This document shows positions 33,015-39,779 of a DNA stretch of 64,000 bases, in pieces. The notes beneath the pieces were generated by a model, which was given only the letters and a program-made list of their open reading frames with translations, had not been told where the DNA came from and ran no database searches. A program made the translations under genes and the position numbers. Every line of letters starts with the position of its first letter. Position 1 is the stretch's first letter. This stretch comes from Candidatus Poribacteria bacterium (lineage in GTDB: Bacteria; Poribacteria; WGA-4E; JAJDTR01), in the NCBI GenBank assembly GCA_028820655.1, contig JAPPIK010000006.1, positions 183,427-247,426 on the forward strand. Reading direction: 5' to 3'.

Positions 33015-35348
33015 CTAATCGTTGACCTCTATTGCATACGGAGTCAATAGGAACGTGCGATGTTGGCGCAACAGGTCCAGTAGCGAACCACGCCGACCAT
33101 CCGTCGATCCGCCGACGAATGTCTTTGCGGTATTGTAAGCCTTGAGCCATTGGGTAAACCAATGTTCGCGAGGCAACCGGACGAGTTCAACTTCCTTACT
33201 TTCCAACCCGGCTCTCTTCCGGGCGACCATAATAGCGTGATTCAATCCTCCGAGTTGATCAACGAGTCCATTCTCAAGCGCTTGTTTTCCGGTCCAAACC
33301 CGACCTCTGGCAATGCGATCAACCTCGTCCTTCGTCATGTCACGAGCGTCTGCCACTTTTGCGATGAATTCGTCGTAAATTTCGCTAATTTGACGGCGAA
33401 CAATCGCGCGTTCTTCGGGTGGATAATCTCCATAATCCGTATAGAAATCGGCATGTTTTCCGCGTTTGATAATCTCTTTGCGTACGCCAATTTTGTCGTA
33501 CAGTCCTTTGAGGCTAAATTTACCGCCGATAACGCCGATAGAGCCTGTGATGGTGCCGGGTTCGGCGACAATAACATGTGCCGGCACGGCAATATAATAA
33601 CCTCCAGATCCAGCAACATCGGCCATCGACACAATTAACGGTTTAACCTCTTTCAGAAGCATCAACTCCCGCCAGATGATGTCCGCGGCGATGACCAGCC
33701 CCCCGCCGCTGTCAATCCGTAATACAACCGCCTTAACGGAATCATCCAGGCGAACGGATCGGACCGCACGTGCAATTGTGGTAGAACCCATCGCTTGGGT
33801 TCCCGTGAACGGATCCCAAAAACTGTCGCCGGTGACCATGGTTCCGGCGGCTTCAATGATTGCGATCTTCGGCAAGGGAATCTCCCAGTCGGGCCGGTAT
33901 GTCTCGGTGTTCAAATATAGCTTCGCCTTCACCAGCGAATACGATCCTCTCATCAGTTCCTTCGTTATGGTTTCCAATTCATCTCGATATGCAAGCCGAT
34001 CAACAACACCGTGCTCAACCGCCTGCTTTGCCGTGAAGGGGCCCCGGTCAATTTGTTCCTTAATTTGGTTTTGCGTTAACTTTCGTTCGGCGGCGATGGA
34101 TTCACACACTTGATCGTACAGATCATCCAGAATTGAGTTTTGGACCTCCCGGTGGGCATCGGACATTCGCTCGCGGGTAAAAGGATCGGACGCCGTTTTG
34201 TAGTCGCCAATGTGTTCGAGATCGGCTCGAAGACCCAATTTGTCCAGCGTCTTTTTGTAGAACGAAGTCTCCGACCGCAGTCCGATCAACCGCACTTCCC
34301 CCGATGGATGAAGGACAATTCGGTCACATGCGGAGGCAACGATGTAAGTGCCCGTAGAATAGTTGTGCCCGTAACAGATCGTTCGCTTGCCGGCGGATTT
34401 AAAATCCGATACCACATCGCGCAACTCCTGTAATCGCCCAAGTCCGAGATCGGTGTTCTCAACCCGTATGAGCGCCCCTGCAACGTCGGGATCTCGCTTT
34501 GCAATCCTCAGTGTCCTTGCGGCATCGCGGATCCGAGTCTCCAGGAAGATCTTGCTCCGCAACCGAGGTTTGTTTTGATCGACGTTGGAGACGTGTATGT
34601 AACTGAGACCGTCCCGATGCTCCCGGTTCTCATCGAACCGATTAAACGCTCCCAATCCGACTTGACCCAGCGTGATGCCGAAACGGATGTCGAAGCTGCC
34701 GCTCTCGTTTAGATTGGCTCTCACCAACACGGCTTGAACCGGACGGAATTCTACGGCATAGTCAAGATCGATCCCGTCGATGTTTTCCGTTTTTCGCGCG
34801 TCAAGAGAGAAGGTTACGCGCCAGGTGCGCGGTCGAAAAGCCAAACCGAAATCGTAGGTTCGATTCTTGTCAAGAAGCTTCGGTCGATTCAAATCTCTCG
34901 CAACAATGCCAAGCGAAAGGTAGCGTCGGCGCAACATCAAACCGAGCGACAAGGAAGAGAACTCATCGTAGCTTTCATCATCGGAATTAATCCAGCTATA
35001 ACCGGTTCCCCAATAAAGTGATCCCAAGAGACGACTGCCGCTCGACAAGGTGTATCGAGCGAAATCAACATTGACTCCGCCGAACTCCATGCCGAACCCG
35101 ATACCGGGGTTGGAGACAAAGAAGGCATCATCACCACTTGAGGCGCCGCTGTAGGTACGCAAATAGCATAAGTTGAAACCGTTACTTACAGCAAGCCCCG
35201 CAGGATTGAGAACTGTTGCCAGCGGATCGTCACTCACAGCGACAGAATTGGAGGGGAGAGGTGTCTGTGTCTTTGGGGCGGCTGCCGCAGGGTGGGAGAC
35301 AACAAGTGCGAGGAGTGCAGCAATGAATCCAATTTTCGGGCGACTCAA
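33015..35348 (-). CDS. sppA: Signal peptide peptidase SppA (67K tandem-domain type) with ~260-aa N-terminal beta-rich extension
   Basis: Two ClpP/crotonase-like SppA domains (ICYGHNYSTGTYIVASACDRI and VVSMADVAGSGGYYIAVPAHVI with Ser). N-terminal signal peptide plus an OMP-like region. Confidence 0.8.
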   Translation of the reverse strand: MSRPKIGFIAALLALVVSHPAAAAPKTQTPLPSNSVAVSDDPLATVLNPAGLAVSNGFNLCYLRTYSGASSGDDAFFVSNPGIGFGMEFGGVNVDFARYTLSSGSRLLGSLYWGTGYSWINSDDESYDEFSSLSLGLMLRRRYLSLGIVARDLNRPKLLDKNRTYDFGLAFRPRTWRVTFSLDARKTENIDGIDLDYAVEFRPVQAVLVRANLNESGSFDIRFGITLGQVGLGAFNRFDENREHRDGLSYIHVSNVDQNKPRLRSKIFLETRIRDAARTLRIAKRDPDVAGALIRVENTDLGLGRLQELRDVVSDFKSAGKRTICYGHNYSTGTYIVASACDRIVLHPSGEVRLIGLRSETSFYKKTLDKLGLRADLEHIGDYKTASDPFTRERMSDAHREVQNSILDDLYDQVCESIAAERKLTQNQIKEQIDRGPFTAKQAVEHGVVDRLAYRDELETITKELMRGSYSLVKAKLYLNTETYRPDWEIPLPKIAIIEAAGTMVTGDSFWDPFTGTQAMGSTTIARAVRSVRLDDSVKAVVLRIDSGGGLVIAADIIWRELMLLKEVKPLIVSMADVAGSGGYYIAVPAHVIVAEPGTITGSIGVIGGKFSLKGLYDKIGVRKEIIKRGKHADFYTDYGDYPPEERAIVRRQISEIYDEFIAKVADARDMTKDEVDRIARGRVWTGKQALENGLVDQLGGLNHAIMVARKRAGLESKEVELVRLPREHWFTQWLKAYNTAKTFVGGSTDGRRGSLLDLLRQHRTFLLTPYAIEVND

Positions 35349-35475
35349 ATTTTTTCCTTCCTAATCGAGTAGGCTGCGCTATGGGCCGGCTTTGCGCGCC
35401 ATCGCTTGATGTGAATAATAACCCGCCGCGCGGAGACACTAACCCATTCAACGCAATGCATGAATAGCATTTTTG

Positions 35476-37594
35476 CATTATACCACCAAAGCGAGGTGTT
35501 AGCAATTCAAATTGAGCGGCTCACGTGAGATAGCAAGCCTCTATAGCCTTTTAAGAGTGGCTCGTCGGAATTAAATGTGGAATATAAAATTGACGTTGTG
35601 GTTTATTTTCAAGAAAAAAACTCGGTTTCGGGGGCGCTGGTGCGCGGATACGGGAAGATTGGAAGGAGGGAATGGGGAGAGGATTGTCTGAATCACGGAT
35701 TGGGAGGGATGGTGGGCGGTGACGTGGGGCGGGCGGGGGAATCGCGATCGGGAGGTCGATTCTACAGATAAAACGCTGGTGCGCGGAAGATCGCTATCGG
35801 AGTTCTACCGCGCTCGCTATTCACTCGCTTGCTGGATCTCTATCGCACTCGCTATCCACTCGCTTGATTACCCTACACGTTGTGAATTAGGAATGGTGGG
35901 CAATGCCCACCCTACAACTGCCAAATCGCGATCGGGAGAAGATCGCTGTCGTGGTCGTTGTTCTCTCGGTTGTATGGATGTTTGTCTCGCCTTTGAAATC
36001 ACATTGCACTCCGCTGGAGTGCGGGAATTGAGATGTCTGTTTTCTATTGACATGCCGCTCCGTTGGAGCGGGAAATCGCGATCGGGAGATCGCTCCTACG
36101 GGGCGGGGAGTCGCGGCCGGGAGGTCGATTCTACAGAAAAAAGGCGCGTGCGCGGAAGATCGCTATCGGAGTTCTACCGCGCTCGCTATTCACTCGCTTG
36201 CTGGATCTCTATCGCACTCGCTATCCACTCGCTTGAGGGATTTCTATCGCGCTCGCTATCCACTCGCTTGATTACCCTACAGGTTGTGAATTAGGAATGG
36301 CGGGCAATGCCCACCCTACAACTGCCAAATCGCGACCTGGAGAAGATCTCTATGGGATTTCTACCGCAGTCGCTATTCACTCCTTTGCTCACTCATTATC
36401 CATTCGCTTGATCTCCCACAGGAACCGGTTGATGGGCGCCGGGGAGGGGAATCGCGGCCGGGAGGTCGTTCCACAGGGAGGGGAGGCGCGGCGTCGAGGT
36501 CGTGCGGTAAGAAATCGGGGCAAGATGCCTCTCCCACAATTCTCAGAAAGAAGCCAAGTTATCAAGAAAAAACTGGGTTTCGGGGGCACTGGTGCGCGGA
36601 CACGGGAAGAATGGAAGGAGGAAGGGGGAGGGGTTGTCTGGATCACGGATTAGAGGATGGCACAGACGCACAGATGATAGAAGAATAGACGGGACGAAAT
36701 CGGGGGCAAGACAAAAAGACAAGATGTCTACGATGTGATGATGGATGACTGTGTGAAGAAAGAATTGTTGTGCCGCGAGGAGCTTTTATTGAGATCTTCC
36801 GTTTATTTAGGGCATAGATCGTTCAGACGCAATCCTCGGTGCTGTCAGCCTCCAGTCCATCGTTATTAGCCACGTGGATCAATCAGATTCCGTTGATTTA
36901 TGTATTTCGTAGTTTCCAATGTGAGCGTCTAGCTTCCTGTCGATAACATCGACTTTCCGAGCCAAGTTATCGTGTTCTCTGCTAATCTGCGACCGGAGAT
37001 CGTTGAATCGCTGGTCGATTTGTTCGAATCGTTGGTCCATATGCTTGCCAAAATGATCGAATCGATGGTCAATGCTTTTGGAAAAGTCATCGAATCGTTG
37101 GTCAATGCTTTTGGAAAAGTCATCGAATCGTTGGTCAATGCCTTTGGCAAAGTTTTCAAATCGATTGTTCATGTTCTTACTCAAATCGTCTACACGCTTG
37201 CTTACAATGTGCGCGACCGAGAAGATGCCACCAATGTACAGAGCGATTAGCGCGGCAATCTGTCCCATTAGTATCCAACTCATCGCTATGAACCCCCTTG
37301 ATAGTATTGCATGCAACTGTCAATCGCCTAACAGAAAATTCTTCTTCAATATCTTCCTGTTATAGTAGTTATCCATTTTCAAACATACTTCATCAGTTGG
37401 TCCACGTCCTCTCTCACTCCCAATTCATTGTGTTTGCGCTATGGCTTCATGCGCGAAAGAACCTGTCACGCGAAAACACCAAACTGTGCCGGTCATAATT
37501 CGCGTCTCCGCATTATACCACCAAAGCAAGGTGTTATCAATTCAAATTGAGTGGCACACGGGAGATATCCAGCCCCTATGTCTTTCAGAGTATA
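35476..37594. repeat. Repeat-dense ~2.1-kb non-coding block
   Basis: Two 85-bp direct repeats (35476-35560, 37512-37594). Two ~230-bp direct repeats (about 35740-35950 and 36105-36350). ~100-bp direct repeats (35600-35700, 36560-36660). ~35-bp minisatellite tctatcgcRctcgctatYcactcgcttg. Inverted copy of the window-start unit at 36000-36103. Overlapping ORFs here encode repeat-derived peptides. Confidence 0.8.
36879..37316 (-). CDS. Membrane-anchored coiled-coil protein with tandem 11-aa repeats (IDQRFDDFSKS)
   Basis: N-terminal TM helix, then 5-6 tandem repeats encoded by 33-bp DNA repeats. Confidence 0.55.
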   Translation of the reverse strand: MHAILSRGFIAMSWILMGQIAALIALYIGGIFSVAHIVSKRVDDLSKNMNNRFENFAKGIDQRFDDFSKSIDQRFDDFSKSIDHRFDHFGKHMDQRFEQIDQRFNDLRSQISREHDNLARKVDVIDRKLDAHIGNYEIHKSTESD

Positions 37595-37604
37595 CCACCG
37601 CACA

Positions 37605-37634
37605 TTGCAGAACTGTGTTTTAATGTGCTAAAAT
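37605..37634 (+). promoter_or_regulatory. Candidate sigma-70 promoter (TTGCAG - 18 bp - TGcTAAAAT extended -10) for the DUF3179/rSAM operon
   Basis: Sequence match to -35/-10 consensus about 90 bp upstream of the ATG at 37726. Confidence 0.35.
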
Positions 37635-37725: not shown

Positions 37726-38784
37726 ATGGATAAGAATATCACCCTTTTATCGACCACAATCCTGTTGCTGCTGCTCAAATGCCTACCGTGGGCGGGCACA
37801 ACCCGTGCCGCAGAGGCAGGTTATTCGCGAGATGTCATTAAGACACTGCTGCCTTTCGATGCAATTCCCGCGATCACGAACCCGCAGTTTGTGTCAGCGC
37901 ACGAAGCGCAATTGGGCGGCGATGCTCCCGTTATCGGAGTGACTTTCAACGGGGAGCAGCACGTTTACTCGATCTATCTCTTGAACGGGCACGAAATCGT
38001 GAACGATGTTGTCGGCGGAATGAAGATTGCGACCACATGGTGACCGTTGTGCAACTCGGCTATCGTGTATAGCCGCGAGCTTGACGGGAAAACCTACACC
38101 TTCGGCGTTTCCGGCAAACTGTGGCGCGATGCGCTTGTCATGTACGATCATCAGACTCGCACGCTGTGGTCTCACATCACGGGCGAAGCTATCCGGGGAA
38201 AACTCGAAGGGAAGAGGCTAAAGATGCTGGCGGGGATGCCCAAAATCGACTGGCGAACGTGGCGCTTGAATTTCCCGGGGACGAAGGTACTTTCCGTGCC
38301 GGTCGGCGCTTTCGATAACTCCTTCTCGATCGAGGAGCAGAGGCGCGACAGCTACGCGCAATATCACGCCGGTCCGGAAACGGGAGTTAGCGGTATGCAC
38401 TACTCCGATACCCGTCTAAACAACAAAGAACTGGTAGTTGGCGTGAAACACGGAGATCGGCACCGTGCTTACCCGACTTCGGAATTTCAACCGAAGCCGA
38501 TCGTCCATGACGCCATCGACAATGTTCCGATCCTCGTGTTTCACGATCAAAACTCGGGCGCCACCGCCGTGTACAAACGAACGCCAGATGGATTGACGTT
38601 GGTGTTCGAATGGTGCAAAGGTTATTTTGCCGTAGACAGCGCGGGAACAACTTGGAACCTTATCACGGGCCTCGCGACGCAGGGGAAATACAAAGGGACA
38701 CGGCTGGAACGGCTGCCTTCAATCAACCTCTACTGGTTCGCATGGGCGCGTTACTACCCCGATACGTCGATTTATGGTCGATGA
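37726..38784 (+). CDS. DUF3179-family secreted protein with in-frame TGA (38041-38043) at the first Cys of the conserved C-P-L-C motif; predicted selenoprotein (U-P-L-C)
   Basis: ORFs 37633-38043 and 38047-38784 are in the same frame across one TGA. HEIVNDVVGG...TTW-[TGA]-PLCNSAIVY matches the DUF3179 HEIVND...TYCPLC core. Hairpin cggctat-cgtgt-atagccg sits 13 nt downstream of the TGA. Signal peptide from ATG 37726. Confidence 0.65.
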
Positions 38785-38804
38785 GATCGATACACTAAGG
38801 AGCT

Positions 38805-39779
38805 ATGCAGGAAGCAGAACCGATGAATCCATTTGAGAAGGAAATTGCGCGTTACAACGGACACGGACTCGGCGCCTTAGACATCGATACGATCCAGGTC
38901 AATATCGGTCTAAGGTGTAACTTGGAGTGCGCCCATTGCCACGTCGTGTCCTCTCCGCGCCGGAAGGAGACTATGGGCTGGACCACGATGGAACATGTGA
39001 TATCGGCTGCGGAAGAGGTGTGCGCCAAGCTCGTCGACATCACCGGAGGCGCCCCGGAAATGCATCCTCATTTCCGGCGATTTGTCTCCGCACTGCACGA
39101 AAAACGACTGCCCGTGATGGTGAGGACGAACCTGACGATCCTGCTGGAAAGCGGATTTGAGACGATGCCGGAGTTCTTCCGCGAACATCAAGTTGAACTT
39201 TGCGCCTCCTTGCCCTGCTACTTGGAGGAGAATGTGGATTCACAGCGCGGTACAGGAGTTTACGAAAAAAGCATCCAAGCACTTAGAGTTCTAAACGAGC
39301 GCGGATACGGGATTGAACCCGGCCTGCCGTTGAATCTAGTTTATAACCCGGTTGACGCCGCTCTCCCGCCGAATGCATTAGAACTTGAAGCGGATTACAA
39401 GCATGAGCTACGGGAACGTTTCGGAATCGAATTTTCCAGTCTGCTGACTATCACAAACATGCCGATCGGTCAATTTCGGCGCGACTTGAAACGGGAAAAT
39501 AAACTCGAAGATTACAACCGGCTGCTTCAAGCGTCGTTTAATCCCGCGACGCTGGATGGCTTGATGTGCCGTCATCAGATTCATGTCGGCTGGGATGGCC
39601 GGCTCTACGATTGCGATTTCAACTACGCGCTCAAACTACCGGTAGGTGACGCGTATCCCCAATATATCAAGGATTTCAATCCCCACCTGCTTCTGAATCG
39701 CAAGATTCAGACGGGATTCCACTGCTTCGGATGCACGGCGGGTAGCGGGTCGTCCTGCGGCGGTGCACTGGTTGAATAA
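38805..39779 (+). CDS. Radical SAM protein of the ArsS-like family (Cys-rich C-terminal CxxCxAGxGSSCxG)
   Basis: CNLECAHCH CX3CX2C radical-SAM motif near the N-terminus. C-terminal GFHCFGCTAGSGSSCGGALVE. Starts 21 bp after the DUF3179 gene. Confidence 0.75.
   Translation: MQEAEPMNPFEKEIARYNGHGLGALDIDTIQVNIGLRCNLECAHCHVVSSPRRKETMGWTTMEHVISAAEEVCAKLVDITGGAPEMHPHFRRFVSALHEKRLPVMVRTNLTILLESGFETMPEFFREHQVELCASLPCYLEENVDSQRGTGVYEKSIQALRVLNERGYGIEPGLPLNLVYNPVDAALPPNALELEADYKHELRERFGIEFSSLLTITNMPIGQFRRDLKRENKLEDYNRLLQASFNPATLDGLMCRHQIHVGWDGRLYDCDFNYALKLPVGDAYPQYIKDFNPHLLLNRKIQTGFHCFGCTAGSGSSCGGALVE

Follow-up and report, generated by a model that had tools for sequence, protein, structure and literature searches.

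The window analyzed here is a 64,000-nucleotide (nt) stretch of a Candidatus Poribacteria genome (assembly GCA_028820655.1, contig JAPPIK010000006.1, positions 183,427 to 247,426 of the forward strand). Within it, a DUF3179 gene interrupted by an in-frame TGA lies directly upstream of an ArsS-family radical SAM gene. A sequence-only reading had taken the two as a secreted selenoprotein and a radical SAM enzyme working together, possibly in metalloid (As/Se) metabolism. Here, we report profile, comparative, and structural analyses of this locus. From its conservation across homologues, the TGA at 38041 is strongly supported as a codon for selenocysteine (Sec); ArsS is a clade-specific neighbor, brought there by a lineage-specific gene arrangement, and not a conserved partner.

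The two open reading frames (ORFs) of the DUF3179 gene (37726[37633]..38043 and 38047..38784) are in the same frame, with nothing but the TGA between them. The product read across it (...KIATTW-U-PLCNSAIVY) matched the PF11376 profile at residues 45-347 (profile 2-292 of 292, E = 5.5e-76), scoring 256.2 bits against a Pfam gathering cutoff of 27. The earlier claim that the two ORFs make a single DUF3179 protein was upheld, since the profile covers the fused product from end to end. Alignments by tblastn spanned residues 1-352 without a frameshift (L001-L007), and across the Poribacteria loci protein alignments passed the TGA codon in frame at 54-82% identity; because they do so, both halves of the gene are under protein-level selection. 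The protein is predicted to be exported and extracytoplasmic, as the sequence-only reading also had it: a hydrophobic export signal was read at its N terminus, and homologues carry lipoprotein-type or signal-type N termini. The predicted local distance difference test score (pLDDT) was low over the corresponding region of an orthologue model. A scan for other TGA-split ORFs across the window returned no further credible selenoprotein candidate.

The second gene was correctly recognized as a member of the ArsS family. Its product scored 416.8 bits against the TIGR04167 equivalog (cutoff, 300), also matched PF04055 and PF12345 (E = 9.8e-51 for the latter), and carries the CX3CX2C motif (CNLECAHC) and a Cys-rich C-terminal tail (CFGCTAGSGSSCGG). 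It is 100% identical to P0233 (318 amino acids [aa], start 38823), annotated by NCBI as ArsS in a metagenome-assembled genome of Candidatus Poribacteria. The start is ambiguous (the ATG at 38805 has AAGGAG only 2 nt upstream, and homologues of both lengths exist). The gap to DUF3179 measured 20 nt, or 38 nt with start 38823, so the close adjacency stands and the figure of 21 bp given previously does not. Consistent with what had been said of arsM, no arsM-like gene was found in the window, nor any methyltransferase, glycosyltransferase, or LMWPc gene near ArsS; the arsM/arsenosugar-cluster association is thus missing here. Other window genes are housekeeping genes (nuo genes, peptidases, a GH32 glycosidase, ATP-binding cassette transporters), with no arsenic or selenium genes elsewhere in the 64 kb.

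Conservation of the TGA was assessed in the 80 closest genomic loci, all from species genomes of Candidatus Poribacteria (81 loci including the window), and in 80 diverse metagenomic DUF3179 loci. Among 66 full-length homologues, which share 31-61% identity with the window protein, there is no variation at C106, P107, L108, and C109 or at E90, V92, N93, and D94; the HEIVND...TW-C-P-L-C core is present, with U at 106 in the window, and His89, Met139, and Asp141 vary little or not at all. The profile thus confirmed the family and placed the TGA at a conserved Cys column, and Cys orthologues of the fused protein proved plentiful (66 of 66 homologues at that column, and P0005 in Poribacteria), which bears out Sec at the first Cys of C-P-L-C. 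The column holds TGA in 79 of the 80 Poribacteria genomes and TGT in one (L018); outside Poribacteria, TGA occurs there at 39 further sites in 35 loci. The metagenomic loci comprised 29 Sec forms and 43 Cys forms out of 80. This alignment of UGA with the Cys of homologues is the Sec/Cys pair of a bacterial selenoprotein gene, and in whole lineages such as Poribacteria the Sec form prevails. Most database homologues of DUF3179 are 239-aa C-terminal fragments, because nearly every Poribacteria gene has TGA at the motif column.

A hairpin of the selenocysteine insertion sequence (SECIS) type follows the TGA. The perfect 7-bp hairpin noted earlier was found as described: its stem (CGGCUAU/AUAGCCG) begins 13 nt past the UGA and folds at -18.4 kcal/mol, and, as in a SECIS, it is a stem-loop shortly 3' of UGA with a conserved G in the apical loop. 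Third-codon positions within it are 100% conserved in Poribacteria, against 28-85% outside the hairpin region. Across 45 core-distinct sequences, the stem was 96.8% paired with a near-invariant CGUGU loop, and compensatory double changes occurred at 4 of the 7 pairs (18-34, G-C/U-A; 20-32, C-G/G-C; 21-31, U-A/C-G/A-U; 22-30, A-U/G-C). The covariation score was 0.408, compared with 0.169 for shuffles (0 of 500 reached 0.408) and at most 0.11 for slid controls. Pairing in the same register averaged 6.9 of 7 in Sec genes and 2.7 of 7, never above 5, in Cys genes with similar peptides. No Rfam family matched the hairpin, and nothing in the window reached the gathering score. Because synonymous sites are frozen, the stem covaries, and the hairpin is specific to TGA genes, we take it to be a genuine SECIS-type element under selection as RNA. 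With the invariant Cys column and the TGA of the Poribacteria genomes, this covarying hairpin makes a signal far beyond chance. The sole Cys form in those genomes (TGT at L018 6316-6318, protein P0005) has retained the sequence of the SECIS hairpin, suggestive of a recent change from Sec to Cys.

Table 1. Features of the DUF3179-ArsS locus (window coordinates)
Feature	Position	Strand	Details
DUF3179 selenoprotein gene	37726..38784	+	352 codons plus stop; predicted Sec at codon 106; PF11376 match
N-terminal export signal (predicted)	37726..37815	+	MDKNITLLSTTILLLLLKCLPWAGTTRAAEA; ~30 residues; hydrophobic N terminus read from sequence
In-frame TGA, putative Sec (U106 of U-P-L-C)	38041..38043	+	Aligned with invariant Cys of homologues
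SECIS-type hairpin	38057..38075	+	Stem 38057-38063 with 38069-38075; apical loop CGUGU, 38064-38068
ArsS-family radical SAM gene, Cys form	38805..39779	+	TIGR04167, PF04055, PF12345; alternative start 38823
Candidate DUF3179 promoter	37605..37634	+	-35-like TTGCAG, 37605-37610; 18-nt spacer; extended -10 TG-n-TAAAAT, 37626-37634
86-nt repeat (family D8)	37494..37579; other copy 35459-35544		83% identity between copies

Published selenoprotein tables (PMC9312934, PMC13188914) already include DUF3179, with the motif UxxC/T, as a predicted family, and both sources credit the prediction to Zhang & Gladyshev 2007 (NAR 35:4952), from the Olavius symbiont metagenome. The window gene is therefore an ordinary further member of an already predicted selenoprotein family, and the novelty implied by calling it an uncharacterized redox protein was overstated. 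DUF3179 paralogues are often grouped: at L083 (4820-7179) a Sec form and a Cys form stand in tandem, and L112, L115, L120, and L150 each have two Sec-form genes on opposite strands. Four Poribacteria homologues (P0054, P0084, P0114, and P0118) carry a collagen-like G-x-x insertion (GADGQDG...) of 20-50 residues between the domain halves, recorded as PF01391 in P0118.

A structure was predicted for P0005, a natural Cys orthologue 61% identical to the window protein. The model is all-beta, a tandem pair of Rieske-like domains, and by this prediction DUF3179 would have the Rieske fold, with the U/C-P-L-C motif at a beta-hairpin turn of the N-terminal domain. The Rieske CxH...CxxH ligand pair is absent, no Pfam Rieske match appeared even at E values up to 10, and the PDB held no sequence homologue of DUF3179. 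We considered U-P-L-C as a homologue of Rieske box II (C-P-L-H, the CPxH box), an idea based on the 17-residue spacing from H89 to C106, which equals the His-to-Cys spacing in 2QPZ. It was rejected as unproven (hhalign probability, 3.6%); the hhalign register, carried through the internal repeat, puts the motif in a different hairpin. A thioredoxin-fold oxidoreductase was also rejected, the model being all-beta with no thioredoxin-family Pfam match and only the motif resembling WCxxC.

Independent evidence on function came from neighboring genes. Pfam annotation of 150 ORFs within 2.5 kb of DUF3179 in metagenomic loci gave AhpC-TSA/Redoxin as the commonest family (11 of 150 ORFs), with extracytoplasmic function (ECF) sigma factors second (5 ORFs). 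The neighboring redoxins resemble TlpA/ResA; most have CxxC, and their N termini are of the membrane-anchor or lipoprotein type. Such a redoxin was adjacent to or fused with DUF3179 in 13 of the 80 metagenomic loci, beside both Sec and Cys forms. Two single ORFs (L152:822-2270 and L146:1430-3097) carry the redoxin domain fused N-terminally to DUF3179, and a third (L112:3481-4851, reverse strand) encodes a lipoprotein-redoxin-DUF3179 fusion with TGA at F-U-PLC, making it a selenoprotein candidate itself. Fusions of this kind are classical evidence for a functional link, here one in which U/CxxC would undergo thiol-disulfide exchange and be re-reduced by a thioredoxin-like protein. Thioredoxins of the TlpA/ResA/DsbE type recycle periplasmic reductases, as in Neisseria PilB (a thioredoxin-MsrA-MsrB fusion) and in TlpA-ScoI/CoxB. 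The earlier thiol/selenol redox claim thus gains support it did not have, from TlpA-like neighbors and fusions, and loses ArsS as the co-worker. Weak matches of an ad hoc redoxin hidden Markov model (HMM) to N-terminal fragments of DUF3179 (E ~1e-4) were discarded as local WCPxC similarity, not homology. A flavoprotein disulfide reductase was set aside as a general partner; it was seen at L084 and L085, and tblastn detected it in 11 of 80 loci, yet it made up only 2 of the 150 census ORFs and is an occasional neighbor only.

Our overall reading, which we hold with a probability of roughly 80%, is that of an exported DUF3179 selenoprotein whose selenol/thiol redox center is recycled by TlpA-type redoxins, with ArsS as a separate matter. 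The UGA would be decoded as Sec within one exported protein of 352 residues, with the hairpin presumably acting as the SECIS that recruits SelB and Sec-tRNA. Sec would stand in for the first Cys of the invariant C-P-L-C, and Sec106 would be the attacking nucleophile, forming a selenenylsulfide with the resolving Cys109 that TlpA/ResA-type membrane-anchored thioredoxins would re-reduce. The downstream ArsS would be a separate, Cys-form radical SAM enzyme of an arsenosugar-type family. The chemistry is most likely that of an extracytoplasmic selenol/thiol redox center (reductase). A broader formulation is tentative and has less than even odds in our view: that DUF3179 is an uncharacterized class of extracytoplasmic selenol/thiol reductase or soft-metal handler, with a duplicated Rieske-like scaffold that lacks the cluster and with TlpA-type thioredoxins recycling it.

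Several observations weigh against this reading. No selA, selB, selC, or selD gene and no tRNA gene was found in the 64-kb window; in its favor, Sec-containing [NiFeSe] hydrogenases are reported in Poribacteria (PMC13582414) and SelA/SelB in sponge-symbiont bins (PMC5649159). No TlpA-like gene lies near DUF3179 in the window or in the 80 Poribacteria loci, and because no redoxin is adjacent in Poribacteria, the redoxin partnership in the window is an extrapolation from other lineages. On the structural side, the profile comparison with Rieske ferredoxin by hhalign was not significant. The hairpin register of the model would set the motif opposite the nearly invariant His89; that proximity, like the position of the motif relative to a Rieske cluster site, is something we infer from the model. 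The literature searched yielded no experimental work on any DUF3179 protein. Lastly, DUF3179 and ArsS are on the same strand 20-38 nt apart with no terminator-like site between them, which speaks for a functional pair.

The main rival to a reductase, one that we judge unlikely though well ahead of the others, is that U/C-P-L-C and His89 serve primarily to bind a soft metal (Cu(I), Hg(II), Zn, or Fe), the scaffold being a degenerate Rieske-like one. The protein would then be an extracytoplasmic metallochaperone or sequestering protein, and the TlpA-like redoxins would keep its ligands reduced. TlpA keeps ScoI and CoxB reduced. A metal site would fit the modeled Rieske-like fold with its CPxC "knuckle" in a beta-hairpin, the conservation of His89, Met139, and Asp141, and the second rank of ECF sigma factors in the neighbor census. 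It would also suit the metal-stress context of L084, where an ECF sigma factor, NrsF, and a bufferin operon lie upstream of DUF3179 and a MerA-like flavoprotein downstream, and several other predicted selenoproteins of the same 2007 study are metal-related. Against it, the published UxxT variant lacks a second thiol and better fits a catalytic nucleophile than a chelator, and fusion to a thioredoxin fold is typical of recycled reductases. The classical Rieske ligands are absent with no Rieske HMM signal, and the census showed no metal transporter consistently adjacent.

Two kinds of gene neighborhood deserve separate mention. L084 (2080-11042; also L096 and L097) contains a possible metal/metalloid stress island, in the order ECF sigma factor with NrsF, bufferin-type operon (BufA1, MbnB-like, HvfC, DoxX), DUF3179, and a MerA-like flavin adenine dinucleotide (FAD) oxidoreductase (PRK06370 family), ending in an 829-aa protein that joins a radical SAM/SPASM part to an ArsM-like methyltransferase and has a Cys-rich C terminus. 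At L124 (5001-10900), two small ORFs follow DUF3179; beyond them are a TrsS-like radical SAM gene, whose score of 445.6 bits narrowly misses the cutoff of 490, a DVU_1556-type methyltransferase, and a flavoprotein disulfide reductase.

The distribution of ArsS bears directly on the proposed pairing. An ArsS-like gene follows DUF3179 only in the window and its nine closest loci (at least 74% identity), that is, in 10 of the 81 Poribacteria loci, with gaps of ~20 to ~475 nt. All 10 share a block of S49 peptidase, DUF3179, ArsS, and GH32, and because the whole block is syntenic they amount to one evolutionary event. None of the other 71 Poribacteria loci has ArsS within 6 kb of DUF3179; in 67 of these a short-chain dehydrogenase-like gene is nearby (mostly immediately downstream, on the opposite strand), amid assorted oxidoreductase genes. 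ArsS is present in those genomes, unlinked: on one 6.35-Mb chromosome, a nucleoside phosphorylase and a metallo-beta-lactamase-fold gene flank it at ~1.33 Mb, ~950 kb from the split DUF3179 gene at ~0.38 Mb. Among the diverse metagenomic loci, 0 of 80 have an ArsS-like gene within 5 kb of DUF3179, and the remaining sampled loci likewise have none.

ArsS has a conserved context of its own. In four loci of other lineages (L086, L091, L093, and L095; two annotated, as Latescibacterota and Krumholzibacteriia), it belongs to a conserved cluster that also has an MptA_B-family protein and glycosyltransferases. Of the 4 loci, 2 have an ArsM-like methyltransferase upstream of ArsS, all 4 have another methyltransferase a few kilobases downstream, and 3 have a low-molecular-weight (LMW) phosphatase; DUF3179 is in none of these clusters. 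In another Poribacteria locus (L081, 6749-9882), ArsS is flanked by a PNP_UDP_1 nucleoside phosphorylase, which might serve in salvage of 5'-deoxyadenosine or methylthioadenosine (MTA), and by a metallo-beta-lactamase-fold gene. Because arsM and glycosyltransferase genes are absent there, Poribacteria ArsS may not make arsenosugars.

That Sec-form DUF3179 and ArsS make up a two-gene module of shared function, the periplasmic selenol redox protein and the radical SAM enzyme cooperating in As/Se metabolism, is accordingly very improbable and already largely refuted by this distribution. Apart from the tight spacing, the module could appeal to the adjacency retained in 10 related genomes, to the radical SAM/SPASM-ArsM-like fusion after the MerA-like flavoprotein at L084, L096, and L097, to the TrsS-like radical SAM and DVU_1556 methyltransferase at L124, and to a methyltransferase, a glycosyltransferase, and two radical SAM genes near DUF3179 at L103. 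The 10 genomes are a single event with sister gaps up to ~475 nt, however, and nearby ArsS is absent from 71 of 81 Poribacteria and all metagenomic loci. Its neighbors elsewhere are methyltransferases, glycosyltransferases, and LMW phosphatase, and it is cytoplasmic (no signal peptide) versus an exported DUF3179. The other radical SAM and ArsM-like genes near DUF3179 are regarded as occasional co-location in stress or detoxification islands. Radical SAM proteins in general were rejected as the DUF3179 partner, with few cases only and Radical_SAM outside the top 25 neighbor families. The claim that DUF3179 works with ArsS is consequently not supported, adjacency across independent lineages not being found, and neither is the metalloid inference drawn from the pairing, since the conserved surroundings of ArsS in other lineages are different ones. 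In this genome the pair may share a transcript; a weaker possibility is that DUF3179 in the window subclade was recruited beside ArsS for a metalloid-related task.

Least probable of all is a true stop at the TGA, and pseudogene, nonsense-mutation, sequencing-error, and two-gene readings are effectively excluded: gene callers do split the gene, database homologues are mostly C-terminal pieces, and Pfam-annotated contigs carry DUF3179 as two pieces, but the TGA column is identical across independent assemblies in Poribacteria and elsewhere, both flanks are kept as protein in frame, the covarying hairpin occurs only with the TGA codon, and the N-terminal fragment by itself lacks most of the domain.

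Upstream of the DUF3179 gene, an extended -10 candidate (TGTGCTAAAAT, 37624-37634) together with TTGCAG makes a reasonable candidate promoter. TGTGCTA(A/G)AAT and TTGCRG are kept in 8 of 10 sister loci amid otherwise diverged noncoding DNA. A consensus promoter scan of the window did not call it; the extended -10 promoter proposed earlier is thus conserved and stays a candidate. The repeat reported before it (as 85 bp) is real, at 86 nt, and 4 of 9 sister loci also have it upstream of DUF3179. It contains a promoter-like site at 37540..37512 (TTGATA-17-TATAAT with TG, 11 of 12 matches), and because this site is on the minus strand the repeat points away from the DUF3179-ArsS pair. In both copies, such a near-consensus -35/-10 with TG lies on the minus strand and precedes a leftward gene (the S49 peptidase at 33015-35348 and the ORF at 36879-37316). 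The repeat thus looks like a duplicated promoter module, and the copy beside DUF3179 most likely serves the leftward gene at 36879-37316, not DUF3179.

In the dense noncoding repeat region that the two copies bracket (35577-36650), the larger repeats are spaced 369/404 nt apart (93% and 91% identity), units of 28-59 nt recur every 35 nt, and repeats of 62 nt and 28 nt lie at the two ends (families D1-D7, D9, and D10). A clustered regularly interspaced short palindromic repeat (CRISPR)-like array was rejected, as the gaps between units are only ~7 nt. The leftward ORF at 36879-37316 encodes a 145-aa protein of tandem 11-residue repeats (33-nt period, DQRFDDFSKSI...) with weak apolipoprotein and late embryogenesis abundant (LEA)-like amphipathic-helix matches.

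For annotation, the DUF3179 gene should be called as one selenoprotein, not two fragments; almost all Poribacteria genomes carry this mis-call, as do about one-third of the DUF3179 genes in the metagenomic sample. Biologically, the finding itself contributes little, the family being already in selenoprotein catalogues. Added here are the quantified SECIS covariation, the predicted Rieske-like fold, and the TlpA-like redoxin neighbors and fusions, which were not found stated in the papers searched. The extracytoplasmic location, a TlpA-like partner including Rosetta-stone fusions, a predicted Rieske-like fold without a cluster, and a covarying SECIS together provide this widespread domain of unknown function with its first concrete functional handles. 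The ArsS/metalloid link proposed for DUF3179 should not be propagated.

Set against known systems, the window ArsS resembles characterized ArsS (TIGR04167; Synechocystis SsArsS, which acts with ArsM) in its CX3CX2C motif, DUF3641 C-terminal domain, and CxxCxAGxGSSCxG tail. The earlier statement that some ArsS proteins are selenoproteins was borne out by the NCBIfam name "(seleno)protein ArsS" and by reviews that list TIGR04167, with Sec at the GxxU position, in the same tables as DUF3179 (PMC9312934, PMC13188914). The window protein differs from these in having Cys (GSSC) at the GxxU column, and the gene differs from the ArsS clusters of the four other lineages in lacking nearby arsM, glycosyltransferase, and LMW phosphatase genes. 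Unlike Rieske [2Fe-2S] and NirD-type Rieske-like domains, DUF3179 lacks the CxH...CxxH ligands and a Rieske Pfam signal, and its domain is tandemly duplicated. With the TlpA-recycled periplasmic reductases, it shares a predicted extracytoplasmic location, a two-residue redox motif, and a position next to or fused with an anchored or lipoprotein thioredoxin-fold CxxC domain; it differs in a fold unrelated to methionine sulfoxide reductases (Msr), Sco, or thioredoxin and in having no adjacent redoxin gene in Poribacteria. The closest match is with the catalogued DUF3179 selenoproteins: the Pfam family is the same, Sec is predicted at the first residue of UxxC, Cys homologues occupy the same column, and a stem-loop with G in its apical loop lies 3' of the UGA, the host lineage being the only difference, with the Sec form almost universal in Poribacteria.

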